The notes: a model not told the origin generated them from the letters alone. 24,974 nt of DNA from Chiloscyllium plagiosum (GCF_004010195.1 NC_057719.1:34818399-34843372), one strand, 5' to 3'. Positions 576-24,974 are shown, counted from the first letter of the stretch. Program-made: numbers and translations.

Positions 576-649
576 AACTTCAAACCCAGTCAGCGAGATG
601 AGATTTCCGAGCGGACCGCGATTCTTTGGTCCCCCCAACTGTAATTGAG

Positions 650-770
650 AAACAAAATAAAAACAGAAAAGACTGTATCCCTGGAGAGGGAACCGACGTT
701 AATGTTTCGGAGAGTCGTTGTTTCATTCTCCACAGAGGCTACCCGAGACCTGCCGAATATTTCCAGCATT
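650..770. repeat. Degenerate short interspersed repeat, probably a PLE terminal-repeat derivative
   Basis: aaaacagaaaa...ctggagagggaac...gttaatgtttcgg and ttctccacagagg...gacctgccgaatatttccagcatt form imperfect inverted halves resembling the adjacent element. The family assignment is from recall only. Confidence 0.4.
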
Positions 771-929
771 CAAGATTATAGAGTGGTGCTGGAAAAGCGC
801 AGCAGTTCAGGCAGCATCCGAGGAACAGGAGAATCGACGTTTCGGGCAAAAGCCCTTCATCAGGAATTCCCTGGTCCTCTGATGCTGCCGGATCTGCCTT
901 GCTTTTCCAGCATCCCACTCTAATCTTGA
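770..929. mobile_element. Palindromic non-autonomous PLE-derived element carrying a hammerhead motif
   Basis: Left arm tcaagattatagagtggtgctggaaaagc...gcagcatccgaggaacagg pairs with right arm cctggtcctctgatgctgcc...gcttttccagcatcccactctaatcttga. The same sequence family occurs at 13013-13090 and 14352-14486. Confidence 0.8.
831..869 (-). ncRNA. Minimal type I hammerhead ribozyme motif
   Basis: Minus strand reads gaauuc-CUGAUGA-a-GGGC-uuuu-GCCC-GAAAC-GUC-gauuc. All core nucleotides are present, with a 4-bp stem II and a palindromic ACGU stem III. Predicted cleavage is between 836 and 835. Confidence 0.8.
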
Positions 930-949
930 CTCGGCACATTTTGGCCCAG

Positions 950-1695
950 TTGACGGTAAGTTTGCCGACAAGCCGGACAAGCTGCAGTAAACAGGAGGTG
1001 AGGGAGGAGGCGGAGCAGGCAGCTGACATCATCCGCCTGCGCCGCCAGGAAGCCAACCAATAAGCTTCGGGCGGGACAGTTGATGGACAGGCGGACTGTC
1101 CAGTGGAAGCGTCCCTTGTGTTACAACGCACGCGCCTGGGTGGGTGCGGGAAGCGGGCCAATCGGGTGGGGGTAAAGAGGCGGGCTCTGGGTGACGGTTG
1201 GCAGATGTTGGAGAGAGCGAGGCCGCCGTCGGCAACGGCCGGGAGGGGGAGGCGAGGTAAGGTACCATGTCGGTGTCGGTTCAAATCGGGAGGCGGAGAG
1301 GAGAGCGGGGGCCGAGCACCATCGGATGACAGAGAAGGACGGCCTGCCACCTCATGCCCACACCCTTCCCTCCAGGAAACGGATATCCTCCCCTTGGCCT
1401 GCTGCTCCTCAATCCGCTTTCTTCCGGGAGTCGTCCTCGCTGCCAGTCCCCGGCCCGGAGTCTTCGACCTCGGTCTAAATTGTTGCGGCTGTGCCGGCTG
1501 GCAATGTTCCCGTGTAGGATCGCAGTGTGCCTGAAACTAGGCTGCTGAGAGTGCGGCCGATTTGTACACAGTAACAGGGAGCTCGTTAGCCTGCACCTTC
1601 ACGGCCAGCCGGTGTGTATTGTGTAGTTTGTTATTGTCAGCAGCAGCTCCGCTGTCGGTCACGAAACGGGCATTGCCGCTTCCTCGACGGTCAAC
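950..1695 (+). promoter_or_regulatory. CpG-island promoter and 5' leader of MGAT2
   Basis: GC/CpG-rich unique sequence. CCAAT at 1057-1061 and 1158-1162, GC box GGGCGG at 1069-1074, CRE-like TGACATCA at 1024-1031. No TATA box seen. Confidence 0.7.
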
Positions 1696-3003
1696 ATGAG
1701 GTTCCGCATTTACAAGAGGAAAGTGCTGCTGCTGGCCCTCGTCATGCTGCTCGCCGCCTTCGTCTTGTGGACCGGCGGAAAGCAGAGGAAAAACGAAGCT
1801 TTTCCGAGGGACGACCAAACTTCACGGAGCAGCGGGAAAGCGGGCGCCGGGAACCCGACCAGGAAAGTTTCCAACGAGTCGCAGGCGAGCAAGTTCGAAA
1901 AGCCTGAGGTCGACAACCTGACTCTGGTGTACCGCGGCATCGTTTTCCAGCTGAACTTTGACCAGACGATCAGAAACCAGGAGACCATTAAGACTCGATC
2001 CCCAAATGATTTGGTGGTGGTGGTCCAAGTGCACAACAGACCGGAATACCTGCAGAGCCTCGTCAATTCGCTCAGAAAAGCCAAAGGAATAGGGAACGTA
2101 CTGCTGATCTTCAGCCACGACTTCTGGTCCCCGCAGATCAACCAGATCGTAGCCAGCGTCGATTTTTGCCAAGTGTTACAAATATTTTTTCCATTCAGTA
2201 TCCAGTTGTATCCCAACGAATTCCCTGGACACGATCCCAGAGATTGCCCTCGTGACATAAGCAAAGCGAATGCTTTCAAGCTGGGCTGTATCAATGCTGA
2301 GTATCAAGATTCATTTGGCCATTATCGAGAATCCAAATTTTGTCAGACCAAACATCACTGGTGGTGGAAGTTACATTTTGTTTGGGAAAGAGTAAAAGTT
2401 TTGGAAGATCATAAGGGGTTAGTGCTTTTCATTGAAGAGGACCATTATTTATCACCTGATTTCTATCATGTCATGAAAAATATGTGGCATCTGAAGACTG
2501 AAAGTTGCCCTGATTGTGACATATTGACCCTTGGTACATATACACGTGTCAGTGATTTCACAGATAAAACCAGTAAAGTGGAAGTGAAAACCTGGCGATC
2601 AACAGAACACAACATGGGCATGGCTATGACTAGAGAGACATATCAAAAACTGATAGAGTGCACAGATGCTTTCTGTGAATATGATGACTACAACTGGGAC
2701 TGGACATTACAGTATTTAACTGTATCCTGTCTGCCTCGGTATTGGAAAGTTATGGTCTGTGAGGCTCCTCGTATTTTCCATGCTGGTGATTGTGGCATGC
2801 ATCACAAGAAAGCTTGCATGCCATCTGCTGAAGTTGCTAAAATTGACAAGATTATAAGTAGCAACATACAGCACTTGTTTCCAGAAACAATGGCAATAAG
2901 TGAAATATATCCTTTGGCTGCAATCGGCCCACATGTGAAGAATGGAGGTTGGGGAGATATTAGGGACCATGAACTTTGTGCAAGTTACCGCCGGCTACAG
3001 TAA
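1696..3003 (+). CDS. MGAT2: Alpha-1,6-mannosyl-glycoprotein 2-beta-N-acetylglucosaminyltransferase (GnT-II), 435 aa, single coding exon
   Basis: N-terminus MRFRIYKRKVLLL followed by a type II signal anchor. Conserved VVQVHNRPEYL, QTKHHWWWK, EEDH metal-binding motif, YDDYNWDWTL and C-terminal NGGWGDIRDHELC. Confidence 0.98.
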   Translation: MRFRIYKRKVLLLALVMLLAAFVLWTGGKQRKNEAFPRDDQTSRSSGKAGAGNPTRKVSNESQASKFEKPEVDNLTLVYRGIVFQLNFDQTIRNQETIKTRSPNDLVVVVQVHNRPEYLQSLVNSLRKAKGIGNVLLIFSHDFWSPQINQIVASVDFCQVLQIFFPFSIQLYPNEFPGHDPRDCPRDISKANAFKLGCINAEYQDSFGHYRESKFCQTKHHWWWKLHFVWERVKVLEDHKGLVLFIEEDHYLSPDFYHVMKNMWHLKTESCPDCDILTLGTYTRVSDFTDKTSKVEVKTWRSTEHNMGMAMTRETYQKLIECTDAFCEYDDYNWDWTLQYLTVSCLPRYWKVMVCEAPRIFHAGDCGMHHKKACMPSAEVAKIDKIISSNIQHLFPETMAISEIYPLAAIGPHVKNGGWGDIRDHELCASYRRLQ

Positions 3004-3102
3004 TTGTGATAAATCTCTATATAAGATCATGTCTTTAATAGTATTTAGTTTTCTTCTGTTATTAAAAAATACAACAATGGGATACAATCATTGACTGTCA
3101 CG

Positions 3103-3114
3103 ATTAAAAATAAA
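3103..3114 (+). terminator. Candidate MGAT2 polyadenylation signals
   Basis: ATTAAA at 3103-3108 followed by AATAAA at 3109-3114, about 100 nt after the stop. A further AATAAA lies at 3895-3900. Confidence 0.45.
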
Positions 3115-3169
3115 TGGCTAACTGATTGCTCGGTTAATAACTACACCCAAAGGTGTTATTATTGAGCTT

Positions 3170-3450
3170 CACAGATTAGAAAGACCCCAGATGATATCTG
3201 GTCTGTGATGAATTCGCCAATTTTTAGCTAAGGTTGCCGTAGTGGGGTGCTGCAATTGGGTTTGGCGTTCTGAGTTATGTAGAGGAAAGATCAGCCATGA
3301 TGCTAATACCTGACTATCCAGTGACTACACTGAAAAATTTATTTTGACAATGCTGGATGAGGATAGATTAAGCTTCACTGTATACTGCTCTAAGTTTACT
3401 GACTGGGCCCACATTTGAAGAGTGCTAGAGAACTATTGGTGCCTGTAGAT
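3170..3450 (+). repeat. Old, diverged SINE-like remnant
   Basis: Motifs gtggggtgctgcaattgg, gatcagcca, ctatccagtgac and ggatgaggatag resemble an ancient interspersed repeat of cartilaginous fishes. Recalled, not searched. Confidence 0.35.
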
Positions 3451-4464
3451 CATAAATTACTGTCTCTACAAAAAAAGAGCAGCAGAATTTTGTTTTTGCT
3501 TAAAGAAAAATATGTCCTTGTAGCAAGAGTTAACATTTTCTTCATTAACTTTATATATGTTCTGGGTGACTGAAGAGAAAATGGTCTATGCAGCTGTAAG
3601 AAGGCAAAGAAGCCAAAGGTGTTCATTTCATGTCATGGGTGTAATTTTTTAAGAATTCTGTTTTCATCATTCAGTTTATTTTACAAATGGGTCTTGTTTA
3701 GCTCAATATTGTCACTGCACTTAGTGTTTCAGTTAACAATAAGAAAGTCCCATAGAAATATGCCTTAATGGGTGATGTATGCGTGTCAGCCTGTTTATCA
3801 CCTAAACTACTTCTGCCATCAGTAACAAACCTGCAGCAGGAAATATGAAGTTCAAAATGCTCCTCCATATAATACCCAGAATTTTCAAAATTCAAATAAA
3901 ATTAATATGAAAAAATAATCGGTACTATTATTTCAAATTGTCATAAAAGAAAACACCCACAATGCAACTGGCTGAAAATTTCACCCAATGTAAGTCTTGG
4001 TGACAATACTGTTCACTTAAAGCACAAATCTGTAATTATTTGAAACAGCAATGCAATATTTTCAGTTAAATATTTGCAGTGGCATTTAAGAAACCTGGCA
4101 TGTATTCCCTTACCCCATTCACCTCAGTTGTTTGTCAGGTTCAGCTTACTTAACTGTTGTTGCTTCATGGCAGTTTGAGACACTGTTACATACCTGAAAC
4201 TTTCCATTGTTCAAAGCCTTGGTTGAATTTTAAAAAATATTTCAGTGTAAAACCACCTCAAATAAAAGGAATAGAAAAGCAATTCTTTGTGAAAATGGAA
4301 GAGATATTTTACCACAACGTACCTTCAATTTTTTCTTAAGACTTTGGTTCACACTATTTTGCTTTTTAAGGACTTAAAAGTTTCCCCCAAAAATCTGTAT
4401 TAATATGATTTTAAACTATGCATGGGAGGAAACAACTATGAAGCATTTTTTTTTAATTTATTTG

Positions 4465-4600
4465 TGTGTGGATGTTATCAGCAAGACCAATCTTTGTTGC
4501 CCATCCCCAACTACCTTTGAGAAAGTGATGAAGTCCTATCTTGAACTGTTGGTGCGGTTGTTGGTATGCCCATAGTACTGTTAAAAGAGCTATAGGTTGT
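4465..4600 (-). repeat. Diverged LINE/SINE 3' tail
   Basis: Preceded by a T-rich tract. tgtggatgttatcagcaagaccaatctttgttgccc resembles the reverse complement of the tail at 16255-16355. Confidence 0.4.
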
Positions 4601-4764
4601 TTTCATATGAATATCTTTTATCCACATGGAAACTTAAGTAAACATTTCTGTGTCATTCTAATGATATCACCTTTCAGAAGCACCTTGATTCAGCAAGAAT
4701 ACACAAAACAACAGTAACCACAACTTTATTTTAAAAATTAGAAACCTGAGATTTGAAGTGCAAT

Positions 4765-5000
4765 AGTCCAAGGCACTTTACAAGTGCCTTATTATACAAA
4801 ATAGGGCAAGAAGCCACACAGAGATTTTATGTCAGACAACTAAAAGCTTTGTCAAAGAGGCATGTTTTAAAGAGGGAAATGGAGGCTAAAGAGATGTGGA
4901 AGAGTATTCTGCAGCTCGAGGCCATGACACTGAAGGCATGGCCATCAATGGTTGAACAAGTGGTGATGCAGATATGGCCAGAATTCGAACACAGAATCAG
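4765..5000 (-). mobile_element. Degenerate L2-like LINE 3' fragment
   Basis: ccaaggcacttta...aaagctttgtcaaagaggcatgttttaa...ctgaaggcatggccatcaatggt resembles an antisense L2 3' end. Recalled, not searched. Confidence 0.45.
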
Positions 5001-5619
5001 TACTTAAAAGAATTTTTTTAAAAAGGTAATTTATTTGACAGAATTGATTACAGATAGTTTCTCTCATTCAGACTTTTAAACGTTTCTTTCCCTCCCCTTT
5101 TATTTCAAAAGCATTAAGCTTGATTTCATTCTAGATTAGGTTCCGTGTTTGTAGGTTAACCAAATTCACAACCTACATGTTTGGAAGGGGTATTGTTGGC
5201 ACTTATTTGACTGCAGCATGTCCTCAGAATACTGATTAGCATTATTTGCTTTCTCAACTGGTGCTGGGGACACCTTAGATCAGACTTGAAACATTAGTCA
5301 ATGTGATTTAATTAGTCTTGAGAATTATGTTCTTATACATACAGACAATCAGAATATGTATAAAATGTAAAATTCAGACTAAAAAGTACAAATTTTAAAT
5401 TCAATAAGGGAAGCACAGTCTGATAACCTGCAAGTAACAAAGACAGCAGTGAATCGTGGCACCATAAATGTGTCAAAGTTCCTAATTCAAGTCTCTCACT
5501 CTTTGGACTTTCAGAACATTTCAGTTTTAGAAAAATGTTATTGTTTGATCTAGTCACTTTGTCAAAAAAAACTGAACACATCTACATTATCAATCTATAT
5601 AAATGTTTTGGAATGAGAA

Positions 5620-6512
5620 CATAGGAGGTATGGTTTGTAGATAACACCAAAATTAGAGTACTGGACAGCGAAGAAGGCTACCTTAGAGTACAACGGGATC
5701 TTAATCAAATGGGCCAGTGGGCTGAGGAGTGGCAGATGGAATTTAATTTAGATAAGTGTGAAATGTTACATTTTGGAAAGGCAAATCAGGGCAGGTCTTA
5801 TACATTTAATACTAAGACTTTGGAGTGCAAGTTGATAGCTCCTTGAAAGTGGAATTCCAGGTAGGTGAGTGTAGGTGGCGTTTGGTAAGCTTGCTTTTAT
5901 TGGTCAGTGTATTGAGTACTATTTGAGTTGGGAGGTCATATTGTGGCTGTATAGGACATTGGTTAGGCTCCAATTGTACTGCATACAATTCTGGTAGTCT
6001 TGCTTTAGGAAGGATGTTGTGAGACTTGAAAGAGTTCAGAAAAGATTTACAAGGATGTTGCCAGAGTTGGAGGTTTTGAGCTATTGGGAGAGGCTGAATA
6101 GTCTGAGGCTATTTTCCTTGGAGTATCAGAGGCTGAGGGGTGGCCTTGGAGGTTTATAAAATATTCGGGGGCATGGATAGGCTGAGTAGACAGGGTCTTT
6201 TCCCTGGGGTGGGGGAATCCAAAACTAGAGGGCACAGGTTTAAAGTGAGAGAAGAAAGATTTAAAAGGGACCTAAAGGGAAACATCTTCACACACATGGT
6301 GGTGCATGCTTGGAACGAGTTGCCAGAGGGAGTGATTGAGGCTGGTACAATAACAACATTTAAAAGGCATCTGGATGGGTATATAAATTGGAAGGGTTTA
6401 GAGGGATACAGACCAAATGCTGGTAAATGGAACTAGATTAACTTAGGATACCTGGTCAGGATGGACAAGTTGAACCGAAGCGTCTGTATTCATGTTGTAC
6501 AACTCTATGGCT
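5620..6512 (+). mobile_element. 5'-truncated CR1 LINE (RT C-terminus plus 3' tail)
   Basis: Remnant peptides WAEEWQMEFNLDKCEMLHFG, LERVQKRFTRMLP and KTRGHRFKV...FTHMVVHAWNELP. Ends in a ...gtacaactctatg tail. Confidence 0.92.
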
Positions 6513-6659
6513 GAAAACTTGGACTAACATTTACTTGAACCCCTCCAAGATTAAAATGTGGAAGGACAGAAAAATAGTTAGATAATATATGTATTGAGTA
6601 AAAAGATTTTCTGGATGTCATTGATTCTTTCAACAGTTTCCTTAAGCTCTGCATCCTCT

Positions 6660-7010
6660 GTTCAATTTTCTGTCATTGGCAATCAATGTCAGCAATTCAG
6701 GTCAAGGAAAGTAGTGGTCCTAGTGCTGACCCTGGGGACCTCCATTGTATTTCTTTCCTCCAATCTAATAAACATACATTCAAAACTGCTTTGTCTCCTG
6801 TCACTCAGTCAACTTTATATTTATTTAGTTACTGCCCTTTTATTCCAATGGCATTGACGTTGTTGGCAAATCATGTCATTTTATTAAGACTCCTGTAAGT
6901 CTGTGTGCCTCACATGCTCATCAATAACTTCATCAAAAAAACACAATTAGTGGATTTCCTTAATTTATGCACACCTGTCCAAGTAACCTAATTTTGTCCA
7001 GGTCATTGTT
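6660..7010 (-). mobile_element. Highly degenerate CR1-like fragment
   Basis: gtagtggtcctagtgctgaccctgggga and following AT-rich sequence resemble antisense CR1 RT (GVPQGSVLGP region). Confidence 0.4.
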
Positions 7011-7899
7011 TCTAAAATCTTTCACACCATTCTTCGCACCCTTTCTTTTGAGAAGGACAAAAGATTTCCAATTTTTCTGTACCCTACAGTTTTGCCCAGT
7101 GCACCCTTACTTCAGCATCCTGGGACGCATCACATTCATATTTGATTATTTTTCAACTTTTATGTAGAGCCAATCTTTCTAATACTTCCTCTAAGTGTTT
7201 ACTTACTTCAATATCCAAACTACCTCTTTTTTCACTATGATTTGGATAACCTTTTCTTCTGTTGTAAAAAGTGCAATTAATGTATTTGAGATGAAAATGC
7301 TCAACTTAAAAGAATCACTTGACAATTGAGTGCACTGCAGGTGACTTATGAAATCGGTGCAATAGTCTCCTTCATCCAGAAGTCCAACAGCTCTTCCCCA
7401 TTTATCCCAGACAAAATCTAATTTCCATATATTCAGATTCTTCAAATGTAATATTCTAAAAACTTCCAATTTTCAAATCTTTATTGCAGTCATTCCTCCC
7501 AACCTTTGAAATCTCTTCCAGTCATTTGCCTGTGCCAAAATTTCTACCCCTCCAGCCTTGAATTACTCTTGTCCATTTCTTGCTTAATTCTAATTACTTC
7601 CAGCTTGAAGATTCCTCCTAAAATACCTGTCTCCACCTTCCCTAGTACCCATCTGAAGCTCTTGTCAAACAGATAGAGGAGCAGCACTTGAATCTTGCAA
7701 TTCATATTGGCAAGATTTAATCCATCAGAAGGTTGAAGAATAGTGTATGTAATTTCCCATGAGTATTTTTGTTTGTAACTCTTCAACTAGGGAACCAATA
7801 AGTTTGAATATTGATATTACTAAGAATATTGGTGGCAGTGTCTTTTAGCTCAAAGTGAATTGCTGTTTGAACATGCTTGTTTTCTTCCATGATGTTGTA

Positions 7900-8115
7900 G
7901 CTGGAGCTTCAGATAGCAGTGGGAGAGGCTGCAATTTTCGTTTTAGCATATGCCTGTCTAGGTACCCGCTCCTGTCAATGGCATGCATTGAAAGGATTAA
8001 GGTTAATCATCACTGTTTAGCTGCATTATGAATGATTTTCCTTGGCCATCAAGTCTTGAGGTGGAACTCAGATCCACAGCTTCTGGTGCAGAGGTAGGGA
8101 AGCTGCCCACTGCAT
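7900..8115 (-). repeat. Degenerate tRNA-derived SINE-like remnant
   Basis: Minus strand gcagtgggcagcttccctacctctgcaccagaagctgtggatctgagttccacc resembles a decayed A-box/B-box SINE head. Confidence 0.3.
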
Positions 8116-8399
8116 TATTACTATAATCTTAAGATAACAGTGATCACAAACTCTCCAAAAAACAACAAAGAATTTTGGAATCACTTGATAATTTAATAAT
8201 AAATTAGTTTTGGCATTGTAAATCCCTTGATCGGATGCAGAAATAACAATTTTAACAAACAAGATAAACAAAGATTATACTGTATACTTGCCAGGTAAAG
8301 TTAATTGCAAGAGATGCAACAAAAACAGGAATGATAATACATAGCTGAAAAAAATCAGCTGTTCCTGAGAAGTCTGCAGACTTAATTACAAATCACAAA

Positions 8400-9375
8400 C
8401 TATGCTTGCAGTATGTCACAAGGATCAATGCTGAGTCCACTGCTTTCGTCATTTAAATCAAAGATTTGGATGTTAACATAGGAAGTACAATTAGTGAGTC
8501 TGCAGCAAAAATGGAGCTGAAGTGGACAGTGAAGGTTATGTCCGAGTACAAGGGGATCTTGATCAGATGGGCCGATGAGTAGCAGACGGGGTTTAATTTA
8601 GATAAATATGAGGTGCTGCATTATGTAAAGGCAAATCAGGGCAGGGCTTAGACACGTAATGGTAAAATCCTGGGGAGTGTTGCTGAACAGAGACCTTGGA
8701 GTTCAGATTCATAGTTCTTTGAAAGTGGAGTTGCAAGTAGAGAGGATCATGAAGGAGATGTTTGATATGCTCACCTTTATTGATCTTTTATTGAAGTTGG
8801 GAGGTCATATTGCAACTGTACAGGACATTGGTTAGGCCACTATTGGAATATTGCTTGTAGTTCTGGTGGTCTTGCTTTAGGAAGGATGTTGTGAAATTTG
8901 AAAGGGTTTAGAAAAGATTTACAAGGATGTTGCCAGGGTTAGAGATATAGGGAGAGGCTGAATAGGCTGGGGCTTTTTCCTGTAGTGTTGGAAGCTGAGA
9001 TGTGACCTTATGGAGGTGTATAAAATCAGAAGGGCATGGCTAGAGTAAATAGACAAGGTCTTTTCCCTGGGGTAGGGAATCCAAAACTAGAAGGCATAGG
9101 TTTAAGGTGATAGGGGCAAGATTTAAAAGAAGCCTAAAGGGCAAGTTTTTCACACAGAGGGTGGTGCATGTATGGAACAAGCTACTAAAGGAAGTGGTGG
9201 AGGCTGGTACAATTACATTTAAAAGGCATCTACATGAGTATATGAATATCAAGGATTTAGAGGGATATAGGTCAAATGCTGGCAAATGGGACTTGATTTA
9301 TTTAGAATATCTGAATAGCATAGATGAGTTGGACCAAAACGTCTGTTTCCATGCTGTACATCTCTGACTCTATGG
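8400..9375 (+). mobile_element. 5'-truncated CR1 LINE
   Basis: Homologous to 5620-6512. Peptides FTQRVVHVWNKL and TITFKRHL. Tail gtctgtttccatgctgtacatctctgactctatg. Confidence 0.92.
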
Positions 9376-9599: not shown

Positions 9600-10289
9600 T
9601 TAGTCTAGTTGATACAACTCCATACTTTGGAAATTGAATGCAGATTTTGTTTTATGGTCACTTATAATCTTAACACTTTGGTCATTGGGATTGATTTCCT
9701 CAAGAATTTGCAGTGGAGCCGTAGTATTAATAAACTCGGGAGTGTTCTCATCTTTCTGGTTATTTGGAAGGTCATCTTCATCAAGTACATTATCATCTAC
9801 TTTTGTACACTGTTTAAAATGTACTGATTTTTCACAGTTTACAAGTAGAGGTTCATCATTTATAGATAGTGGCTTGTCAACATATATTGTACTTGCGTGA
9901 GAGGGTGACATATTTGACTCACTTTTCATTTTAACCTCACTAGTAAGTTTACTCGCATTAACAGAAGTCCAACAGTTACTGTGCGTCAATTGATTCATGT
10001 CATAATTTGGAACTTCATTATTTGTTCCTTCTCCTGCATTAGTCGTTTCCAAAAAATTATCAGTGCCTGCCATAGCAACTAATTGGTATTTGTCATTAGA
10101 TACAAATTCAGCAGCATCATTTGCCAATGGTGTCTCTTCTTCCAATATTTTACCTTCTGCAATAGATTCAGAAAAACTGGTTTCTTCTGTCTGTTGTTGA
10201 ACGTTTGCAGCATTACAAGCTTCATTGTGTTTAACTCTGTCTGGTTTCAGAGAAAATCCATGGGAACTGGTGTTCTCACTCTCCTGAAG
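9600..10289 (-). CDS. DNAAF2: DNAAF2 last coding exon (exon 3)
   Basis: Acceptor ttttataatttcag|CTT at 10290/10289, phase 0, open to TAA at 9600. Ends HKTKSAFNFQSMELYQLD, matching the conserved kintoun C-terminus. An in-frame alternative AG lies 6 nt downstream. Confidence 0.88.
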   Translation of the reverse strand, partial: LQESENTSSHGFSLKPDRVKHNEACNAANVQQQTEETSFSESIAEGKILEEETPLANDAAEFVSNDKYQLVAMAGTDNFLETTNAGEGTNNEVPNYDMNQLTHSNCWTSVNASKLTSEVKMKSESNMSPSHASTIYVDKPLSINDEPLLVNCEKSVHFKQCTKVDDNVLDEDDLPNNQKDENTPEFINTTAPLQILEEINPNDQSVKIISDHKTKSAFNFQSMELYQLD

Positions 10290-10313
10290 CTGAAATTATA
10301 AAATCAACAATAT

Positions 10314-10476
10314 TTAGAGTCATAGAGATGTACAGCACGGAAACAGACCCTTCGGTCCAACCTGTCCAGGCCGACCAAGTATCCCAACCTAAACTCATCC
10401 CACCTGCCAGCGCCCAGCCCATATCCCTCCAAATCCTTCCTGTTCATATACCCATTCAGATGTTGCAATTGTACTT
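10314..10476 (-). mobile_element. CR1 3' tail fragment
   Basis: tagagtcatagagatgtacagcacggaaacagacccttcggtcc... is the reverse complement of the tail at about 20910-21087. Confidence 0.9.
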
Positions 10477-11807: not shown

Positions 11808-11942
11808 TATAGAGATGTACAGCACGGAAACAGACCCTTTGGTCCAGCTCGTCCATGCCGACCAGATATCCCAACCCAATCTAATCCCACAGGCCAGCAC
11901 CTGGCCCCATATCCCTCCAAACCCTTCCTATTCATGTACCCA
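11808..11942 (-). mobile_element. CR1 3' tail fragment
   Basis: Closely matches the reverse complement of 20947-21080. Confidence 0.9.
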
Positions 11943-13008: not shown

Positions 13009-14152
13009 GTCAAAGAGTGTGGTGCTGGAAAAGCACGGCTGGTCAGGCAGCATCTGATGAGCAGGAGAGCAAAGCTCTTCATCAGGAATGATGGGGTGAC
13101 CCAAGGAGTCAGAGATAAATGGGGGGAGTGGTGAAGAGGTAGCTGTGAATGCGATAGGTTAGTGTTGCTTAGTGTGTGTGCCCCAGAGATGTTCTCTGAA
13201 ACGTTCTGCAAGTTGCCGTCCTGTCTCCTCAATGTAGAGGAGACCACAGTGAGAGCAACAGACACAGTAAATGACGTATGTGGAAGTACAGTTAAATCTT
13301 TCTTGGATGTGGAAGGATCCTTTGGAGCTGGACGGAGGTGAGGAGGAAGTGTGGGCGCAGGTTTTGTACTTCTTGCTGTGGCAGGGCAAGATGCTAGGAA
13401 TGGAGGGTGGGTTGGTGGGGGGCATGCACCGAACAAGGGAATTGTGGAGGGAATGGTCTCTCCAAAACACAGATGAGGGTGGGGGAGGGGAATATATCCC
13501 TAGTAGTGGGGTCTGTTTTTAGGTGGCAGAAATGGCAGAGGATGATATATTGTATCCGGACATTGATGGGGTAGAAGGTGAGAACTGGGAGGTTCTGTTC
13601 TTGTTGCAATTGGAGGGTGGGGTTCAAGGGTGGAGGTGCAGGAAGTGAAGGAGATGTGTTGGAGGGCATCGTTGACCACATGGGAGGGGAAATTGCAGTC
13701 TTTGAAGAACAAGGCCATCTGGGATGTTTTATGGTGGAATTGGTCCTCCGGGGAGCAGATGCAGCAGAGGCGGAGGAGTTGGGAATAAGGGATAGCGTTT
13801 TTACAGGAGGCAGGGTGGGAGGAGTTGTAGTCCAAGTAGCTGTAGAAGTTGGTGGGTTTGACATAGATGTCTGTGTTGAGTCGATCGCTGAAAATGGACA
13901 GGTCCAGGAAGGAGAGGGAGGTGTCTGAGATGGTCCAGATGAACTTGAGGTCAGGGTGGAAGATATTTGTGAAGTTGCTGAACTGTTAACTTCCTCGTGG
14001 GAGCACGAAGTGGTACAGACACAGTCACCAATGTAGCGGAGGAAAAGATGGGGAATGGTGTTGATGGACTGGTCCACATACCTGACGAAGAGGCAGGCAT
14101 AGCTGGGGCTCATGCAGGTGGTCTGGAGGAAGTGGGAAGATTCGAAGGAGAG
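13009..14152 (-). mobile_element. Decayed Penelope-like element (RT plus GIY-YIG endonuclease plus terminal repeat) with 8-bp TSD
   Basis: Peptides MSPSYACLFV...FLRYIGDC (RT), DYNSSHPASCKNAIPYSQLLRL and FNCTSTYVIYCVCCSHCGLLYIEETGRQLAERFREH (GIY-YIG). Flanked by gtttctca at 13001-13008 and 14153-14160. Confidence 0.9.
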
Positions 14153-14351
14153 GTTTCTCAACCCCATTCTCCCACTCTCTCCCCTTAAACCTTGATCCCC
14201 TTGACAATCAAGAACCTATCTATCTCTACCTTAAATAAAAATGACCTGGCCTCCACAGCCTTCTGTGGCAATGAATTCCATCGATTCACCACTTTCTCAC
14301 TGAAGAAGTTTCTCCTTCTCAGTTTTAAAGGCTCTTCCCTTTATTCTAAAG

Positions 14352-14486
14352 GTTTCATTCCTGATGAAGGGCTTTTGCCCGAAACGTCGATTTTCCTGTT
14401 CCTCGGATGCTGCCTGACCTGCTGTGCTTTTCCAGCACCACTCTAATCTAAACTCTGGTTTCTAGCATCTGCAGTCCTCACTTCTG
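14352..14486 (+). mobile_element. 135-bp non-coding hammerhead-containing insertion with 14-bp TSD
   Basis: Flanked by cctttattctaaag (14338-14351) and cctttactctaaag (14487-14500). The body matches the reverse complement of about 772-867. Confidence 0.85.
14357..14392 (+). ncRNA. Minimal type I hammerhead ribozyme motif
   Basis: auuc-CUGAUGA(14361-14367)-a-GGGC-uuuu-GCCC-GAAAC(14381-14385)-GUC-gauu. Predicted cleavage after 14388. Confidence 0.8.
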
Positions 14487-18502: not shown

Positions 18503-18908
18503 CCACCTTACTAGTTTAAATCCTCCCAAGCAGTTCTAGCAAATTTCCCTGCCAGTATATTAGTCCCCTTCCAATTTAGGTGCAATCTGTCCTTCTTGTA
18601 CAGGTCACTTCTACCCCAAAAGAGATTCCAATGATCCAAAAATGTGAATCCTTCTCCCATACACCAGCTCCTCAGCCATGCATTCATCTGCTCTATCCTC
18701 CTATTCCTGCCCTTACTAGCTCGTAGCACTGCAAGTAATCCAGATATTACTAACCTTGAGGACCTCATTTTTAAATTTCTGCCTAACTTTCTGTAATCTC
18801 CCTTCAGAGTCTCAACCTTTTCCCTTCGTATGTCGTTGGTTCCAATGTGGACAATGACCTCTTGCTGGCCACTCTCCCCTGTGAGAACATTCTGCACCGT
18901 CTCTGAGA
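18503..18908 (-). mobile_element. CR1 ORF1 SGNH/GDSL esterase domain fragment, inverted relative to flanking CR1 pieces
   Basis: VIVHIGTNDI (GxND block) and DLYKKDRLHLN (DxxH block). Confidence 0.85.
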
Positions 18909-18985
18909 CGGGTTACTCTTCGGAGGGTCGGTGTAGACTGGTTGGGCCGAAGGGCCTGTTTCCACACCGTAGGGAATCTAATCTA
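18909..18985 (+). repeat. SINE/LINE 3' tail (HE1/HER1-like)
   Basis: cggagggtcggtgtagactggttgggccgaagggcctgtttccacaccgtagggaatctaatcta, ending in a short terminal repeat. Confidence 0.6.
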
Positions 18986-20030
18986 CAGGATAGACCGGAT
19001 CTAAAAGTTGAAATTCTAAATTGGAGAAAAGCCAATTTTGACAGTATTAGGCAAAAACTTTCGAAAGCTGATTGGAGGCAGATGTTCTGATTGTTGGGCC
19101 TCTTGCTGAGATATTTGTATCATCGATAGTCACAGGTAAGGTGCCGGAAGACTGGAGGTTGGCAAATGTGATGCCACTGTTTAAGAAGGGCGGTAAAGGG
19201 ATGGCTGGAAAATGGGAAGCCTTCAGAAATGAGATAACAAGAATCCAGAGAAAGTATATTCCTGTCAGGGTGAAAGGAAAGGCTGGTAGGTATAGGGAAT
19301 GCTGGATGACTAAAGAAATTGAAGGTTTGGATAAGAAAAAGGAAGCATATGTCAAGTATAGACATGCTAGATCGAGTGAAACCTTAGAAGAGTATAAAGG
19401 AAGTAGGAGTATACTTAAGAGGAAAATCAGGAGGGTAAAAAGGGGACATGAGATAGCTTTGGCAAATAGAGTTAAGGAGAATCCAAAGGATTTTTACAAA
19501 TATATTAAGGACAAAAGGGTAACTAGGGAGAGAATAGGGCCCCTCAAAGATCAGCAAGGCGGCCTGTGTGTGTAGCCACAGAAAATGGGGGAGATATTAA
19601 ATGAGTATTTTGCATCAGTATTTACTGTGAAAAAGGATATGGACGATATAGACTGTAGGGAAATAGATGGTGACATCTTGCAAAATGTCCACATTACAGA
19701 GGAGGGAGTGCTGGATGTCTTGAAACAGGTAAAGGTGGATAAATCCCCAGGACCTGATCAGATGTATCCAAGAACTCCGTGGGAAGCCAGAGAACTGATT
19801 GTTGGGCCTCTTGCTGAGATATTTGTATCATCGATAGTCACAGATAAGGTGCCGGAAGACTGGAGGTTGGCAAACGTGGTGCCACTGTTTAAGAAGGGCG
19901 GTAAAGGGATGGCTGGAAAATGGGAAGCCTTCAGAAATGAGATAACAAGAATCCAGAGAAAGTATATTCCTGTCAGGGTGAAAGGAAAGGCTGGTAGGTA
20001 TAGGGAATGCTGGATGACTAAAGAAATTGA
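18986..20030 (+). mobile_element. CR1 ORF2 inter-domain region with internal 708-bp-period duplication
   Basis: Peptides LNWRKANFDSIR, KENPKDFYKYI, EILNEYFASVFT, KSPGPDQMYPR, VPEDWRLANVVPLFKKG. 19087-19322 is repeated at 19795-20030. Confidence 0.9.
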
Positions 20031-20653
20031 NNNNNNNNNNNNNNNNNNNNNNNNNNNNNNNNNNNNNNNNNNNNNNNNNNNNNNNNNNNNNNNNNNNNNN
20101 NNNNNNNNNNNNNNNNNNNNNNNNNNNNNNNNNNNNNNNNNNNNNNNNNNNNNNNNNNNNNNNNNNNNNNNNNNNNNNNNNNNNNNNNNNNNNNNNNNNN
20201 NNNNNNNNNNNNNNNNNNNNNNNNNNNNNNNNNNNNNNNNNNNNNNNNNNNNNNNNNNNNNNNNNNNNNNNNNNNNNNNNNNNNNNNNNNNNNNNNNNNN
20301 NNNNNNNNNNNNNNNNNNNNNNNNNNNNNNNNNNNNNNNNNNNNNNNNNNNNNNNNNNNNNNNNNNNNNNNNNNNNNNNNNNNNNNNNNNNNNNNNNNNN
20401 NNNNNNNNNNNNNNNNNNNNNNNNNNNNNNNNNNNNNNNNNNNNNNNNNNNNNNNNNNNNNNNNNNNNNNNNNNNNNNNNNNNNNNNNNNNNNNNNNNNN
20501 NNNNNNNNNNNNNNNNNNNNNNNNNNNNNNNNNNNNNNNNNNNNNNNNNNNNNNNNNNNNNNNNNNNNNNNNNNNNNNNNNNNNNNNNNNNNNNNNNNNN
20601 NNNNNNNNNNNNNNNNNNNNNNNNNNNNNNNNNNNNNNNNNNNNNNNNNNNNN
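20031..20653. other. Assembly gap
   Basis: Run of N. Confidence 1.
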
Positions 20654-21087
20654 AGGGAGAGGCTGAACAGGCTGGGGCTATTTTCCCTGGAACATCGGAG
20701 GCTGAGGGGTGACCTTATAGAGGTTTACAAAATTATGAGGGGCTTGGATAGGATAAATAGGCAAAGTCTTTTCCCTGGGATCGGGGAGTCCAGAACTAGA
20801 GGGCATAGGTTTAGGACGAGAGGGGAAAGATATCAAATAGACCTAAGGGCCAACTTTTTGACGCAGAGGGTGGTGCGTGTATGGAATGAGCTGCCAGAGG
20901 AGTGGTGGAGGCTGGTACAATTGCAACATTTAAGAGGCATTTGGATGGGTATATGAATAGGAATGGTTTGGAGGGATATGGACCAGGTGCTGGCAGGTGG
21001 GACTAGATTGGGTTGGCATATCTGGTCGGCATGGACGGGTTGGACCGAAGGGTCTGTTTCCGTACTGTACATCTCTATGACTCTATG
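20654..21087 (+). mobile_element. CR1 LINE 3' end (young copy)
   Basis: RERLNRLGLFSLEHRRLRGDLIEVYKIM...RTRGH...TQRVVRVWNELP. Ends ctctatgactctatg. Confidence 0.95.
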
Positions 21088-21168
21088 CACAGATTCATTA
21101 TAGAAGGCAGAACAATTAATGTAGCAATTTTGTATATGGCATGACATTTTTGGAATCAACAAAGTTAC

Positions 21169-23082
21169 CTGCAAACAGTTGCACGATTCTCCAGCATGAA
21201 AGCTTTGCCACAAGCCTCGACACTCTGGTGACTTCATTAACACGACTGCAGCATTGTCTTTAGATATATTAACTATGCTTTCTGTGGTGTCCAGCTGATG
21301 TTCTGGAGGAAATTGAACAATCAAGGAATATAAAACATCAGAGTCCTGAGTCCCAAATACAACCCTATAGTCATGAGTGTGAAGTACTGACTTGAAGCTT
21401 TCTTCATTAACATTTTGCACATGCAGTACGAATGTTATAGAGTCTTTATTTTGATGGTAATGGAAATCAGGACATACCGGTTCTGTTTTCTTTAAACAGT
21501 CACCATAGTAGAATGCAGTGTTTGCAGATGAATCTGCACCTACATCTACCTGTTCACCTACAGAATGACTGCATACCTTTTCCAAAGTCCCAAGAGATTC
21601 TTTTCCACTCATTGCAATGGCACCTTCTTTTGCAACATTTTCATGTTCTTCAGGATCTACCTCTGAAACAAGTTTGGAAGTAGCAATTACATCATTTGGT
21701 TTTCCTAAAGTATTATTTGAAACTATCGCAGCCTCTTTAGCAGTTGACTCTGTAAAGGTTTTGCTTTCGCTCAGTTTGAAGTGTTCATTGTTCTCAGATT
21801 GCACCAAATTGGAAACCTGCAAGGTGCTAAATTCAAATTCACTTTCTGGATTCACACCATCACCAAAATGCCCTCCATTTTGTTGATGTGAATGTCCTTC
21901 AAGCTGAAAATCTGATTTACAAAGTAACTGGCCACTCTCTGTGGACTCATTACTAGTTTGTTTAAAGTCACCAGCAGGAAACTGTCCCACTTCTAGGGCT
22001 TGCCTCATAGGTAGCACAGGCAAAGTAACCACAAGCTGCCTCTTAGATTTGTTAAACATAGCTGACCCCAGATTTTCATCTACTGGATAAGGTAGACGCA
22101 AATCAAGCTTGTAAGCTGGTTTCTGTGACTCCAAACTTAAAAATTGCTCAGTTACATCTAAACAAGCATTCTCAGCAGACTTAAGCAAAGGGAGGTCAAT
22201 AGCAATCACCAGCTCTTTAGGTCTGGTGCTGGAAGCAGCTTCACGAGCATATCGGTAATCTTGCAAATCAATATGTGACCTGTGAATAATGGAGTATTTG
22301 GGTTGAGTAGATTTGCTGTCTTGTGATTTTGTATTCTTGTCCTTCATTGCAGATTCTGAACTTTTGTTTGTTGTTTTAGATTGTGTGCCATGCCCAGAGG
22401 GAGTTTCTGACTTTAGGGAACCATAGGGATAAGGAAACTGTAAAGGGTCATCATCATCTGGAGGTTTCTTGGGAACACCAGGAATAGGTTTTCGAATGAC
22501 AGCAGCCTCGGGCATTCCCTTGTAACTTACTTTTAAAGTTTTAACATTTCTTGAATCTAGTTTGGCATTTAGTTGCTTCTCTATCACTTCAATTGAAGTT
22601 TGATCTACCATTGTTTTGAACTTCTTGTTTTTATTCGCCATGTACAAAGTGTCTGGATGAAACACCACATCATATATCATGTGTTTTCTGCCACCTTTAC
22701 CCAGATCTTCTCTCCCCGGCGCCAGACTGTATGGAAGAGACCAATGTTGTCCGACCGTCCCGTTGGCACCCTTTTCAGCTTTGCAAAAGGGTTTATGTAT
22801 CAGGTCGTTGCTGCAGACGTTGATGAAACATTTCTGGTCCCCATTAACGCTGGTTTTGAGAACATAACCAGGGTTGGGATGCACGAACTTAATGTCCATG
22901 CCCCTCTCTTTTTCGAGTTGAGTGATTTCCTCTTCGTACTTTTTCTTATTTTCCGGACTGGAAATTTCCTCCGCGTATTCACACAGCATTTTTCTAAACT
23001 TTTCATCTTTAAACGCTGTGGAAAAGCGCTCCACTTCGTCCCGGGTCAAGTCCAACTCCTCGAGTTTCGAAAAAGACGCCAT
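21169..23082 (-). CDS. DNAAF2: DNAAF2 (kintoun/PF13) exon 1: PIH1 N-terminal and CS domains, 638 codons
   Basis: MASFSKLEELDLTRDEVERF...EYAEEI...KFVHPNPGYVLKT...FINVCSN...WSLPYSL...YDVVFHPDTL...RPKELVIAIDLPLL...LPYPVDE. ATG at 23082 in aacATGG context; donor CAG|gtaact at 21169/21168. Confidence 0.96.
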
Positions 23083-23127
23083 GTTATAGGTCCACCTCAA
23101 CGCGTCTACATCCGCCGTCGCAGATGT

Positions 23128-23137
23128 TTGACGTCAA
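23128..23137. promoter_or_regulatory. Palindromic CRE site
   Basis: TTGACGTCAA about 50 bp upstream of the DNAAF2 ATG. Confidence 0.4.
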
Positions 23138-23333
23138 CACCGCACGAAAGTTTGGTCATCCTTTACTTTACTCTCCCCTTTATCCAACTCCGAAGGTATT
23201 ATGTTTGACTTTGTTTAGTAACTTGTTTTAAAGAACGGTTTTTATACTTAGGGGATGTAGTACGTTGGGTATCGACGTGATGCGTACTATATGGCGGATT
23301 TAGGTAGGAATCAACCTGATGTGATATGTCCTG

Positions 23334-23347
23334 GTTGCCAAGGAGAC
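23334..23347. promoter_or_regulatory. RFX X-box
   Basis: GTTGCC-AA-GGAGAC fits RYYNYY-WW-RRNRAC, about 250 bp upstream of the ATG of a motile-cilia gene. Confidence 0.75.
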
Positions 23348-23719
23348 GTCTTCAAACCCAAACACAGACCAGGTCTCAACGCTGCTTTGTTTATAATCCT
23401 ATTATTAGCATGTTGTAAATAAAATTCCGGTCGTTATTATGCAACTATTGCCTGCAGCTGGAAATTGCCGAGGCAAATAGTTTCACTAGTGACCCTGCTG
23501 GTAGGTTCTTTTAAGTTAAGAAACCAAGTTGAACAAGAACAGGTCTCAGTAGCTTAATTATATGGATGCTGGATCTCCAACTTTAGCTGCTTATCAACTT
23601 TCAAACGACAATTTATCTCAAGTAGTTAGCTGTTGATGTCAAGCATTAGAAACAACAAGCTTTCCTACTCTCAAATGTCAAAGTTTGGATATAACTCTAG
23701 ACTGTCAGTTGGATTAATG

Positions 23720-23865
23720 TGAAGGTAGTGTAAAAGGGTACAGAAGTGATTTACAATAATTGTCCTCTGGTTCAAACATCTCACTTACATACTTGGACGA
23801 AATAAGCTGGAGGTGTTCTTATTAAAAATAGAAGATTGTGAGGGGATTTGATGTGTTCAAACTGT
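23720..23865 (+). repeat. Degenerate CR1 remnant
   Basis: aaagggtacagaagtgatttacaa...aagctggaggtgttctt...agaagattgtgaggggatttgat resembles the ERVQKRFT...RRLRGDLI coding region. Confidence 0.5.
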
Positions 23866-23869
23866 GATG

Positions 23870-24240
23870 TGGAGGTCCCAGTCTTGGACTAGGATGGACA
23901 AAGTCAGAAGTCACATGACACCAAATTATGGTCTAATAGGTTTTTTCAAAATCACAAGCTTTTGGAGCACTGCTCCTTCGTCAGGCACAGAATTTATAAG
24001 CAGAGAGATAATAGCAAGATAATTCCAGGCAATTAAGAGTGTCAAAAGACTTTATACTTAAGTCTTTTGACACTCTTAATTGCATGGAATTATTTTGCCA
24101 TTATCTCTCCACTTATAAATTCTGTGCCTGTGCGCTCCCTCCACTTCACCTGACAAAAGGAGCAGTGCTCTGAAACTTGTGATTTTAGATAAATCTGCTG
24201 GACTTTAATCTCGTGCCATGTGACTTCTGACTTTGTTCAT
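23870..24240. mobile_element. Long palindromic PLE-type terminal-repeat element with two decayed hammerhead motifs
   Basis: Arms 23894-24052 and 24060-24240, with a perfect central 24-bp stem. Hammerhead-like cores at 23953-23985 (-) and 24147-24181 (+). Confidence 0.75.
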
Positions 24241-24289
24241 ATGAGTCAGGACTTATTTGTTGAAGTATTTTTAACATAATAAAATGTTG

Positions 24290-24690
24290 TGGTTCTGTTC
24301 GCCGAGCTGGAAGCTTTTGTTGCAAACGTTTCGTCCCCTGTCTAGGTGACATCCTCAGTGCTTGGGAGCCTCCTGTGAAGCGCTTCTGTGGTGTTTCCTC
24401 CGGCATTTCGAGTGGCCTGTCCCTGCCGCTTCCGGTTGTCAGTTTCAGCTGTCCGCTGTAGTGACCGGTATATTGGGTCCAGGTCGATGTGTTTGTTGAT
24501 GGAGTTTGTGGATGAGTCCAATGCTTCTAGGAATTCCCTGGCTGTTCTTTGTTTCGCTTGCCCTATAATGGTAGTCTCCCAGTCAAATTCATGTTGCTTG
24601 TCGTCCACGTGTGTGGCTACTAGGGATAGCTGGTCGTGTCATTTCGTGGCTAGTTGATGTTCATGGATGCGGATTGTTAGCTGTCTTCCT
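24290..24690 (-). mobile_element. Penelope-like element 3' end (GIY-YIG C-terminus plus terminal repeat), a family distinct from 13009-14152
   Basis: Minus-strand peptide RIHEHQLATKRHDQLSLVATHVDDKQHEFDWETTIIGQAKQRTAREFLEA...INKHIDLDPIY. Confidence 0.85.
24322..24361 (-). ncRNA. Minimal type I hammerhead ribozyme motif
   Basis: gca-CUGAGGA-u-GUCaCCU-agac-AGGgGAC-GAAAC-GUU-ugc: stem I gca/ugc, stem II of 6 bp with one mismatch, palindromic ACGU stem III. Confidence 0.7.
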
Positions 24691-24974
24691 TAGTAGCCAC
24701 ACACGCAGACGACAAGCAACATGAATTCGACTGGGACAACACTACCATTATAGGGCAAGCGAAACAAAGAACAGCCAGGGAATTCCTAGAAGCATGGCAC
24801 TCATCCACAAACACCATCAACAAACACATCGACCTGGACACAATATACCGGCCACTACAGCGGACAACTGAAACTGACAACCAGAAGCGGCAGGGACAGG
24901 CCACTATAAACACCGGAGGAAACACCACAGAAGCGCTTCACAGAAGGCTCCCAAGCCCTGAGGATGTCACCTAG
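24691..24974 (+). mobile_element. Inverted second copy of the same PLE 3' end, running off the window
   Basis: Reverse complement of 24342-24622. The hammerhead begins again at 24958 (CTGAGGATGTCACCTAG). Confidence 0.88.

Follow-up and report, generated by a model that had tools for sequence, protein, structure and literature searches.

What are the short hammerhead-like motifs that recur within a single stretch of a shark genome, and what kind of element put them there? The stretch, referred to here as the window, covers 24,974 nt of Chiloscyllium plagiosum DNA (GCF_004010195.1 NC_057719.1:34818399-34843372), of which 23,570 are non-N bases. A preliminary description claimed seven copies of the motif in three families and all seven were located. 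Three copies are intact, namely A1 (863-836, minus strand), A2 (14361-14388, plus strand) and C1 (24358-24325, minus strand). Three are decayed (A3 and B1 on the minus strand and B2 on the plus strand), and the remaining one, C2 on the plus strand, is severed by the window edge.

The type-I core, CUGANGA followed by GAAA and then UH, is exact in A1, A2 and C1. As had been proposed, the core and an extra nucleotide after CUGANGA are present in all three families; this nucleotide lies between positions 9 and 10.1 and is accompanied by a G10.1-C11.1 pair. Stem II, which is 4–6 bp in the window copies, was said to be completely different between families. This is too strong, as all three stems begin with G-C and families A and B have their first two pairs in common, but true compensatory changes are found at pair 2 (G-C, G-C and U-A) and pair 3 (G-C, A-U and C-G). 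Family C also carries an A.G mismatch at pair 4. The loopless, palindromic stem III holds for A1, A2 and C1, which have ACGU, whereas AGCU is seen in B1 alone and no B copy is intact. Stem I is short, comprising 2 bp, a mismatch and one further pair in family A, 3 bp in C1 and 4 bp in B2. Judged from these sequence features, the seven motifs are taken to be genuine minimal hammerhead ribozyme sequences.

A strict descriptor finds 3 matches in the 23,570 non-N bases compared to a null mean of 0.006 per window, so that motif density is indeed higher than in shuffled sequence, although A1 and A2 share 96.6% identity over 89 nt, so the 3 matches stand for just two independent families. The null was obtained by dinucleotide shuffling in 1-kb chunks (n = 1000): 994 shuffles contained no match, 6 contained one and none contained two or more. 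An Rfam search of the window at E ≤ 5 returned no hammerhead family. The Rfam hammerhead models rest on forms that have a stem III. Several other candidates were set aside: miRNA-family Rfam matches at 24014-24100, which score far under gathering and merely mirror a fold-back hairpin described below; a one-mismatch match at 2783 (plus strand), which is inside the MGAT2 coding sequence and is attributed to chance; and an exact-core match at 5722, which lacks UH and is likewise attributed to chance.

The copies were also described as repeatedly taking a fold-back form. This is correct for five of the seven, whereas the other two, A2 and A3, are simple insertions flanked by target-site duplications. 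Family A is represented first by a CpG-rich, 5'-truncated open reading frame (ORF) fragment of a Penelope-like element (PLE) at 1-605 (minus strand), which runs off the window edge and which was identified by protein matches and tblastn. It spans the reverse transcriptase (RT) thumb and a Cys linker; its best matches are 67–76% identical to shark proteins, and its match list carries PF26215, often alongside PF00078 or PF01541. This is followed by an old, decayed family-A-related tail without a CUGANGA box (704-768, plus strand), an eighth remnant that was overlooked in the preliminary description. It was found by local alignment to A2, with a score reached by 0 of 1000 shuffles, while the score of a suspected second remnant at 640-712 (minus strand) was reached by 156 of 1000 and is non-significant. 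Next to it, repeat and self-comparison revealed fold-back A1 (770-929), which has a single hammerhead at its apex and 60-nt arms that are 82% complementary. The tail is repeated in its right arm as a more diverged, inverted copy, whose start is only a few bases from the cleavage site, and a search of this fold-back for a target-site duplication found none. Hammerhead A1 (836-863, minus strand) is minimal, with an extra A, stem II GGGC/GCCC and a predicted cut after 836.

The other family A copies lie far from this cluster. At 13009-14150 (minus strand), there is a 5'-truncated, frameshifted copy detected by tblastn and containing the RT end, linker and GIY-YIG domain, followed by hammerhead A3 and a tail, all flanked by a 10-nt target-site duplication with 1 mismatch. 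A3 (13068-13085, minus strand), recognized by comparison to the family, sits 65 nt past the end of the GIY-YIG match; it retains CUGAUGA, with the stem II end and GAAAC-GUC box deleted. A2 (14361-14388, plus strand) is minimal and is borne by a solo end-piece insertion (14352-14486, plus strand) of 135 nt, flanked by a 14-nt target-site duplication with 1 mismatch. From the CX2-5CxxC linker between RT and endonuclease, visible in the alignment of family A proteins as CxxxxCxxC, this family is classified as Neptune-type; Nematis shares this linker.

Family C occupies a fold-back at 24286-24974, which protein matches and repeats resolve into two inverted, 5'-truncated GIY-YIG C-termini of Poseidon type, with 234-nt arms matching at 94%, each leading into a hammerhead. 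C1 (24325-24358, minus strand) is minimal, with an extra U and stem II GUC-CCU/AGG-GAC. Both C1 and C2 (24958-24974, plus strand, recognized by comparison to the family) are located at the ORF stop codon, which C1 overlaps. An ATG starts just before stem II of C1, 28 nt from the cut, and the copy ends approximately 67 nt after this ATG in an AC-rich stretch followed by ATT. The Cys linker is absent from P0121, a protein 88% identical to the family C window piece, and from P0129. As the closest full protein lacks this linker, family C is classified by sequence as Poseidon-type (Penelope/Poseidon clade). No relatives of P0121 were found in viral contigs.

Family B is the least preserved. A repeat search defined fold-back B (23870-24247) as a head-to-head inverted pair centered at approximately 24056, with one decayed hammerhead per strand. 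B1 (23956-23984, minus strand) has stem II GGAGC/GCUCC, but GAAA has become AAAA and a 22-nt upstream deletion takes away the 5' strand of stem I. B2 (24150-24178, plus strand; found by comparison to the family) reads CUGACAA, has GCUCU at the stem end and is missing one base after GAAA, with the 4-bp stem I retained. There is no protein remnant for this family in the window; comparison with 133 proteins and 80 PLE loci gave 0 matches, the arms being short and possibly wholly non-coding, and the family-B pattern has 0 matches in viral contigs. A 6-nt match is the only candidate target-site duplication and is unconvincing. Family B is probably a third PLE family, an origin suggested by architecture only.

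The link to PLEs, which the preliminary description missed, comes from several directions. Families A and C adjoin PLE protein remnants whose top matches are carpet sharks, and homology to RT/PF26215/GIY-YIG proteins places RT and, at the C-terminus, a GIY-YIG domain in one ORF for both; a Pfam search of five PLE fragments from the window returned 0 families. Among 80 PLE loci, there are 23 motif matches compared to a shuffle mean of 0.27. Where a locus is eligible, the motif lies just past the ORF on the sense strand in 15 of 34 and on the opposite strand in 0 of 34, with 14 of the 15 positioned 96–154 nt after the ORF; the strict motif is absent from the other 19. An inverted motif copy is found upstream in 4/80 loci. 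The stem III palindrome is present in 16 of the 23 matches in relatives, and 5 of the other 7 differ by CpG-type transitions. The earlier proposal that covariation supports a real hammerhead architecture gains further support from a stem II register test applied without a stem filter to 16 exact-core PLE relatives, which are not independent because 8/16 share one stem II. Here, at least 4 stem II pairs form in 14/16 only when one extra nucleotide is skipped, compared to 0/16.

Accordingly placed within the PLEs, the motifs are, by sequence, terminal repeats of retroelements of a class already described. They are very probably minimal type-I hammerheads in the pseudo-LTR (pLTR) end of endonuclease-positive PLEs, with A of Neptune type, C of Poseidon type and B probably a third family. 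The observations that carry this reading are the position at the ORF 3' end, the target-site duplications and the architecture conserved across PLE relatives. In addition, inverted, 5'-truncated adjacent copies account for all three fold-backs, and target-site duplications flank 2 of the 4 inserts searched. Inverted 5'-truncated copies and head-to-head palindromes are described in the PLE literature, including PMC8557442, and by this analogy the fold-backs are regarded as the usual inverted insertion form of PLEs. The window contains neither a full-length element nor a direct tandem pLTR pair.

A sequence of events can be proposed. Reverse transcription would begin immediately 3' of the ribozyme, within the tail, and would usually terminate early, leaving most inserts with nothing but the hammerhead end. 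Often a second copy would be added in inverted, head-to-head orientation, giving rise to the fold-backs, and new copies would land in or beside old ones, producing the three nests. The ribozyme's job would lie in the tandem transcript of the parent element, where two copies of the same family could form a double hammerhead via the 4-nt palindrome, probably aided by the protein of the element. The dispersed copies in the window would then be inert passengers, decaying largely by CpG transitions.

PLEs of the kind to which the shark motifs belong have been described before, in animals that include fish. Cervera & de la Pena 2014 (PMC4209133) report minimal hammerheads in PLE pseudo-LTRs of type I without stem III or loop 3, with palindromic 15.2-16.2, an extra nucleotide at 9/10.1, G10.1-C11.1 and dimer dependence. 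Their account also includes copy numbers per genome in the thousands, several divergent families within one genome, mainly as single dispersed copies, and dual copies 100–700 bp apart on opposite strands. The motifs are reported there in the Xena, Poseidon and Neptune elements of fish, and neither the text examined nor one supplement file names sharks. A difference is that stem II is given as 7–8 bp in Schistosoma, compared to 4–6 bp in the shark window. The variants of Lunse, Weinberg & Breaker (RNA Biol), as summarized by title and in review, are similarly small, PLE-associated, with a very short palindromic stem III, and cleave as dimers. Family A resembles the Neptune PLEs as set out in PMC8557442 in its RT thumb, CX2-5CxxC linker, C-terminal GIY-YIG domain, hammerhead after the ORF, 5' truncation and inverted adjacent copy. 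The Cys linker is treated as a clade marker in that account; Nematis has it too, and unlike those elements the window copies are only fragments. Family C resembles the Anolis Poseidon element PAc, as reported in PMC11167929, in lacking the Cys linker in its closest full protein, in having an ATG at the stem II start, with the cut 26 nt on compared to 28 nt in C1, and in an AC-rich end next to ATT; PAc ends 111–118 nt after the ATG, in contrast to approximately 67 nt in C1. PLE hammerheads, that of PAc included, are reported to be assisted by protein and not to be needed for insertion in vitro; low activity is reported for PLE hammerheads as well. A literature search with thin coverage of subscription journals turned up no work on PLE hammerheads from sharks.

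The suggestion that these hammerheads depend on dimers agrees, by analogy, with PMC4209133 as far as it describes them. The suggestion that they pair freely in trans fares less well, as stem I must swap in a double hammerhead and modeled cross-family pairs give 0–1 stem I pairs and, where B is involved, also only 2 of 4 stem III pairs. Any dimers are thus predicted to be family-specific. A same-family double hammerhead can be drawn, yet it is not the lowest-energy fold, and the catalytic dimer was computed to be less stable than two monomers in 8/8 pairs. Fold-backs do not appear suited to help in cis, because their two copies are on opposite strands and the core is predicted to be buried in the hairpin. 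The cores are masked in the predicted folds of B and C, while in A1 stem II is predicted to form at the hairpin apex and GAUG to pair with CGUC, hiding the palindrome. The models therefore predict that fold-backs mask the core instead of supplying a partner.

The strongest competing reading, although an unlikely one, is that the short units form a separate non-autonomous family, SINE-like or retrozyme-like, that has its own RNA and is mobilized in trans by PLE proteins. It would fit the A2 insert, which has its own target-site duplication and begins 9 nt before the core, the similarity of A1 to A2, which stops 4 nt before the core, and the lack of an ORF in family B. Non-LTR retrozymes have been proposed, in a preprint (bioRxiv 10.64898/2026.07.22.740005), to be non-coding, non-autonomous derivatives of PLE pLTRs with a type-I hammerhead, including in one chondrichthyan. 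However, at 13009-14150 RT and GIY-YIG sequence passes unbroken into the same A end, as a GIY-YIG C-terminus does into the C end. Retrozymes are defined by head-to-tail tandems, whereas the window copies are solo or inverted: 0/7 are tandem and no such units occur among the listed repeats or in the self-search. This reading overlaps with that of truncated PLE ends, the template RNA being the sole difference.

A much less probable proposal is that some copies were co-opted near promoters, for example A1 with a 60-bp stem I extended by its inverted arm and acting on divergent upstream MGAT2 transcripts. The window contains the MGAT2 coding sequence (1696-3003, plus strand; Pfam PF05060, E 3.6e-160), preceded by a CpG-rich region at approximately 960-1700 in the CpG profile, and the first coding stretch of a PIH1-domain gene (20836-23082, minus strand; Pfam PIH1 and PIH1_CS; PIH1D1 structure match, E 4.3e-06), which we take to be DNAAF2/kintoun from its domains and its synteny with MGAT2. 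All three fold-backs lie 0.8–1.9 kb upstream of a start codon: A1 ends 767 nt before the MGAT2 ATG (1696), and the other two are approximately 790 and 1200 nt upstream of the PIH1-domain gene ATG (23082). The chance of such placement is 0.044–0.064 for at least 2 of 3 nests and, from squared fractions, approximately 0.016–0.024 for both fold-back nests. Under a purely random model, the pattern is mildly unlikely (approximately 0.02–0.06), a post hoc value from only two nests and two or three independent events. That A1 is intact with stem II at the apex, and that the PLE piece at 1-553 keeps 18 CpGs compared to 1 in its intronic homologue, would suit co-option. Against it, both copies near the second promoter, B1 and B2, are defunct, whereas A2 is intact although it lies far from either promoter; the predicted A1 fold hides the palindrome; and CpG retention is explicable, without function, if the piece is younger or if germline methylation is low next to a CpG island. 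A sequencing-run lookup for 960-4700 listed no RNA run containing it.

Finally, chance matches or inert hairpins without ribozyme ancestry, which might be argued from the empty Rfam search, a stem I of just 2–4 bp, modeled dimers that are not the lowest-energy fold and the 8/9 retrozyme dimers that did not cleave according to the same preprint (bioRxiv 10.64898/2026.07.22.740005), are scarcely credible in the face of the shuffle null, the constant position and strand of the motif downstream of PLE ORFs and the register-specific stem II.

With this finding, a class already described gains carpet-shark members and three more stem variants, a modest advance. The only aspect worth measuring is a possibly extreme copy number. 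High genome-wide abundance is plausible from 7 copies in 23.6 kb of one window, which, if genome-wide, would mean a total far above the 4,000–9,000 motifs given for coelacanth and Xenopus in PMC4209133. It is conceivable, at long odds, that this genome holds minimal hammerheads at one to two orders of magnitude above reported vertebrate maxima, and that copies of one family, meeting from introns and upstream transcripts, could cut one another in trans with the PLE protein as chaperone. The retroelement ribozyme would then cut host pre-mRNA across the genome in a family-specific manner, with selection stripping sense-strand intronic cores and tolerating self-silencing fold-backs. The one hint of this is that, of the two copies in the presumed intron, A3 in sense orientation is without its core whereas A2 in antisense orientation remains intact. 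Trans cleavage between dispersed copies, if shown, would represent a novel means by which a transposon acts on host RNA. Given very many dated copies in a genome, hammerhead function could also be tested statistically, using intron strand bias, core versus flank decay and 5'-end positions.

The pattern of seven hammerhead copies in this window is an end module already known from Penelope-like retrotransposons (PLEs). All seven that the preliminary description had claimed were located, and its reading of them as hammerhead ribozymes is right. The core is exact in three, named here by family: A1 (863–836, minus strand), A2 (14361–14388, plus) and C1 (24358–24325, minus). The remainder comprise A3 (from 13085, minus), in which the GAAAC-GUC box is gone; B1 (23984–23956, minus), which has AAAA in place of GAAA; B2 (from ~24150, plus), which reads CUGACAA and has a one-base loss; and C2 (from 24958, plus), which is cut off by the window edge. 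An eighth, older remnant (~704–768, plus) was overlooked in the count of seven. The local density is very high, at seven copies in 23.6 kb. A strict descriptor gave three matches in the 23,570 non-N bases, and in 1000 local dinucleotide shuffles it gave none in 994, one in six and never more than one. As A1 and A2 are 96.6% identical, the three exact cores represent two independent families. An Rfam search of the window returned no hammerhead match. Stem II had been described as wholly different between families; instead, a G-C first pair is common to all three, with compensatory changes among families at pairs 2 and 3. Of the two stem III palindromes proposed, ACGU is present in the exact copies, whereas AGCU came from B1 alone.

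The link to PLEs is provided by proteins. The 133 relatives that were fetched match only four pieces of the window: 3–605, 13051–14197 and 24285–24701 (all minus) and 24687–24971 (plus). For the first piece, 166 proteins matched at E ≤ 0.001; PF26215 is found in nearly all of the 120 listed, and the reverse transcriptase (RT, PF00078) or GIY-YIG (PF01541) domain in many. Among the matches listed, Rhincodon, Chiloscyllium and Stegostoma supply the closest relatives of the PLE fragments, with identity to Chiloscyllium punctatum proteins of up to 90%, which points to a carpet shark as the host. In family A, which is Neptune-type, A3 lies 65 nt beyond the GIY-YIG match of a PLE copy (13009–14150) that has a target-site duplication of 10 nt, and A2 is a solo insert of 135 nt with a duplication of 14 nt. 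The Cys linker, which A-type proteins have, is described as a mark of Neptune and Nematis (PMC8557442). In family C, the hammerhead directly continues the GIY-YIG C-terminus, which is 88% identical to that of P0121, an RT-bearing protein without this linker, and family C is therefore Poseidon-type. In C1 (24325–24358) the ORF stop codon is inside stem II, and an ATG in another frame is just ahead of this stem, 28 nt from the predicted cut. The family C copy terminates in AC-rich sequence with ATT adjoining. The ATG at stem II, the spacing to the cut and the AC-rich end beside ATT resemble those of PAc of Anolis (PMC11167929). Since family B has no match among the 133 proteins or 80 related loci, its PLE origin is one that we only infer. 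Separately, PLE endonuclease ends are present in four predicted shark proteins (P0004, P0122, P0124 and P0126), some of which bear host-gene annotations, and two of the four seem to continue across the region of the hammerhead; these ends are probably gene-model artefacts or exonised repeats.

An independent check came from a profile scan of metagenome contigs, from which the best 80 of 485 confirmed related PLE loci were used. For the position test, 46 of the 80 were dropped because the ORF end was unreached or followed by less than 300 nt, leaving 34. In 15 of these 34, the minimal motif is located 3' of the ORF on the sense strand, at 96–154 nt in 14 of them, and it is found on the opposite strand in 0 of the 34. 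Over these best 80 of 485 loci there were 23 motif matches versus a mean of 0.27 and a maximum of 2 in 100 base shuffles, and 16 of the 23 carry the ACGU palindrome. With the stem filter off, an exact core is found in 16 of the 34 loci. At least four stem II pairs form in 14 of these 16 when one extra nucleotide is skipped and in none when it is not, a count that overstates independence because one stem is common to 8 of the 16. In addition, four of the best 80 of 485 (L003, L026, L059 and L064) have an inverted hammerhead copy upstream. Here, the opposite-strand hammerhead is 1.5–2.4 kb upstream of the ORF end, which is the inverted architecture of the window.

All of the features in the preliminary description are already described for the minimal hammerheads of Cervera and de la Pena (PMC4209133). 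This paper reports an extra nucleotide that falls after position 9 and before 10.1, a G10.1-C11.1 pair, a palindromic 15.2–16.2, many divergent families in each genome, a dependence on dimers, opposite-strand pairs at distances of 100–700 bp, and 4,000–9,000 motifs in coelacanth and Xenopus; PMC6155905 restates the minimal-motif description. A 2026 preprint (bioRxiv 10.64898/2026.07.22.740005), which includes one chondrichthyan, ties such ends to retrozymes, from which the window copies differ in not being tandem. Penelope is among the elements that the whale shark genome paper lists. A literature search of incomplete coverage, with supplements partly covered, turned up no work on PLE hammerheads in sharks. 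A second paper, by Lunse, Weinberg and Breaker, reportedly deals with dimer cleavage.

Five of the seven copies sit within three fold-backs: A1 (770–929), B (23870–24247) and C (24286–24974). The truncated 5' ends abut at the centre of both B and C, and the hammerheads point outward on opposite strands. An inverted, 5'-truncated copy is described as typical of PLEs (PMC8557442), and rotifer Penelopes form head-to-head palindromes (PMC3846280), the same form as fold-backs B and C. The B1 core is nearly all paired inside a predicted hairpin, as is the first half of C1 within the window's extent. The A1 fold-back differs in having a single ribozyme at its apex. Its inverted arm (864–929) begins a few bases from the predicted cut site and lengthens stem I, and in the predicted fold the palindrome is still hidden. 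This arm is 83–84% identical to A2 and the direct copy 97%. The arm may accordingly be the older of the two, with the newer copy having landed in it, and the two arms may be separate insertions.

In a double hammerhead, stem I and stem III are both exchanged between strands. Same-family pairs were computed to form four stem III and two to three stem I pairs. The corresponding values are four and zero for A with C, two and one for A with B, and two and zero for B with C. As stem I comes to only 0–1 pairs across families, pairing would be family-specific, and the trans pairing that had been suggested is not supported in a free, cross-family form. The catalytic dimer is less stable than two monomers in 8/8 pairs (for A2, −13.3 versus −22.8 kcal/mol), and a bare ACGU duplex is computed at −1.7 kcal/mol, energies that ignore proteins and tertiary contacts. 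These unfavourable values fit reports that activity is low even in dimers (PMC4209133) and that PAc cleaves with the help of protein (PMC11167929).

The window comes from a vertebrate and contains two genes in convergent orientation. One is MGAT2 (1696–3003, plus; Pfam, E 3.6e-160). The other is a PIH1-domain gene (start 23082, minus; Pfam domains and a PIH1D1 structure match), which we take to be DNAAF2 from its own domains and synteny with MGAT2. An open frame of 231 aa (9600–10295, minus) is a possible final exon of the PIH1-domain gene, in which case the inserts at 13–14.5 kb would be intronic. In this presumed intron the sense copy A3 (13068–13085) is without its core and the antisense copy A2 (14361–14388) is intact, one case each. 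Another repeat family, apparently LINE and presumably CR1/L2-type, left remnants at 5640–6517, 8500–9371, 10313–10462, 11809–11942 and 18511–21085, the last of which includes an SGNH/GDSL-like domain (18514–18909). A 236-nt duplicate of 99% identity (19087–19322 and 19795–20030), adjoined by an N gap, may be an assembly artefact.

The copies group into three nests (1–929, 13009–14486 and 23870–24974), and PLEs tend to insert in or beside earlier copies (review, PMC6765202). The fold-backs are ~0.8, 0.8 and 1.2 kb upstream of start codons, with CpG-rich stretches adjoining. By chance, at least two of three nests would fall in upstream stretches with a probability of 0.044–0.064, and both fold-back nests with ~0.016–0.024 (the same fractions squared). 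These odds lean slightly toward the proposed promoter clustering, as a post hoc result from two or three events with distances taken from start codons. The PLE piece at 1–553 is 79% identical to its homologue at 13338–13888 and retains 30 CpGs versus 9; the decay is directional, with 18 CpGs kept by 1–553 and lost in the homologue versus 1. This retention suggests either low methylation near the MGAT2 CpG island, with the unmethylated zone reaching the repeat, or younger age.

The core-inactivating changes of B1 and B2 are CpG-type transitions, so that methylation state may influence which copies appear intact. As the hammerheads of fold-backs B and C are on opposite strands, a single transcript would contain one ribozyme and the antisense of it. 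At the centre of fold-back B (23982–24130), a 71-bp stem and a 7-nt loop make up a near-perfect hairpin. This hairpin has a weak miRNA-precursor score and, if transcribed, would be a possible source of double-stranded RNA.
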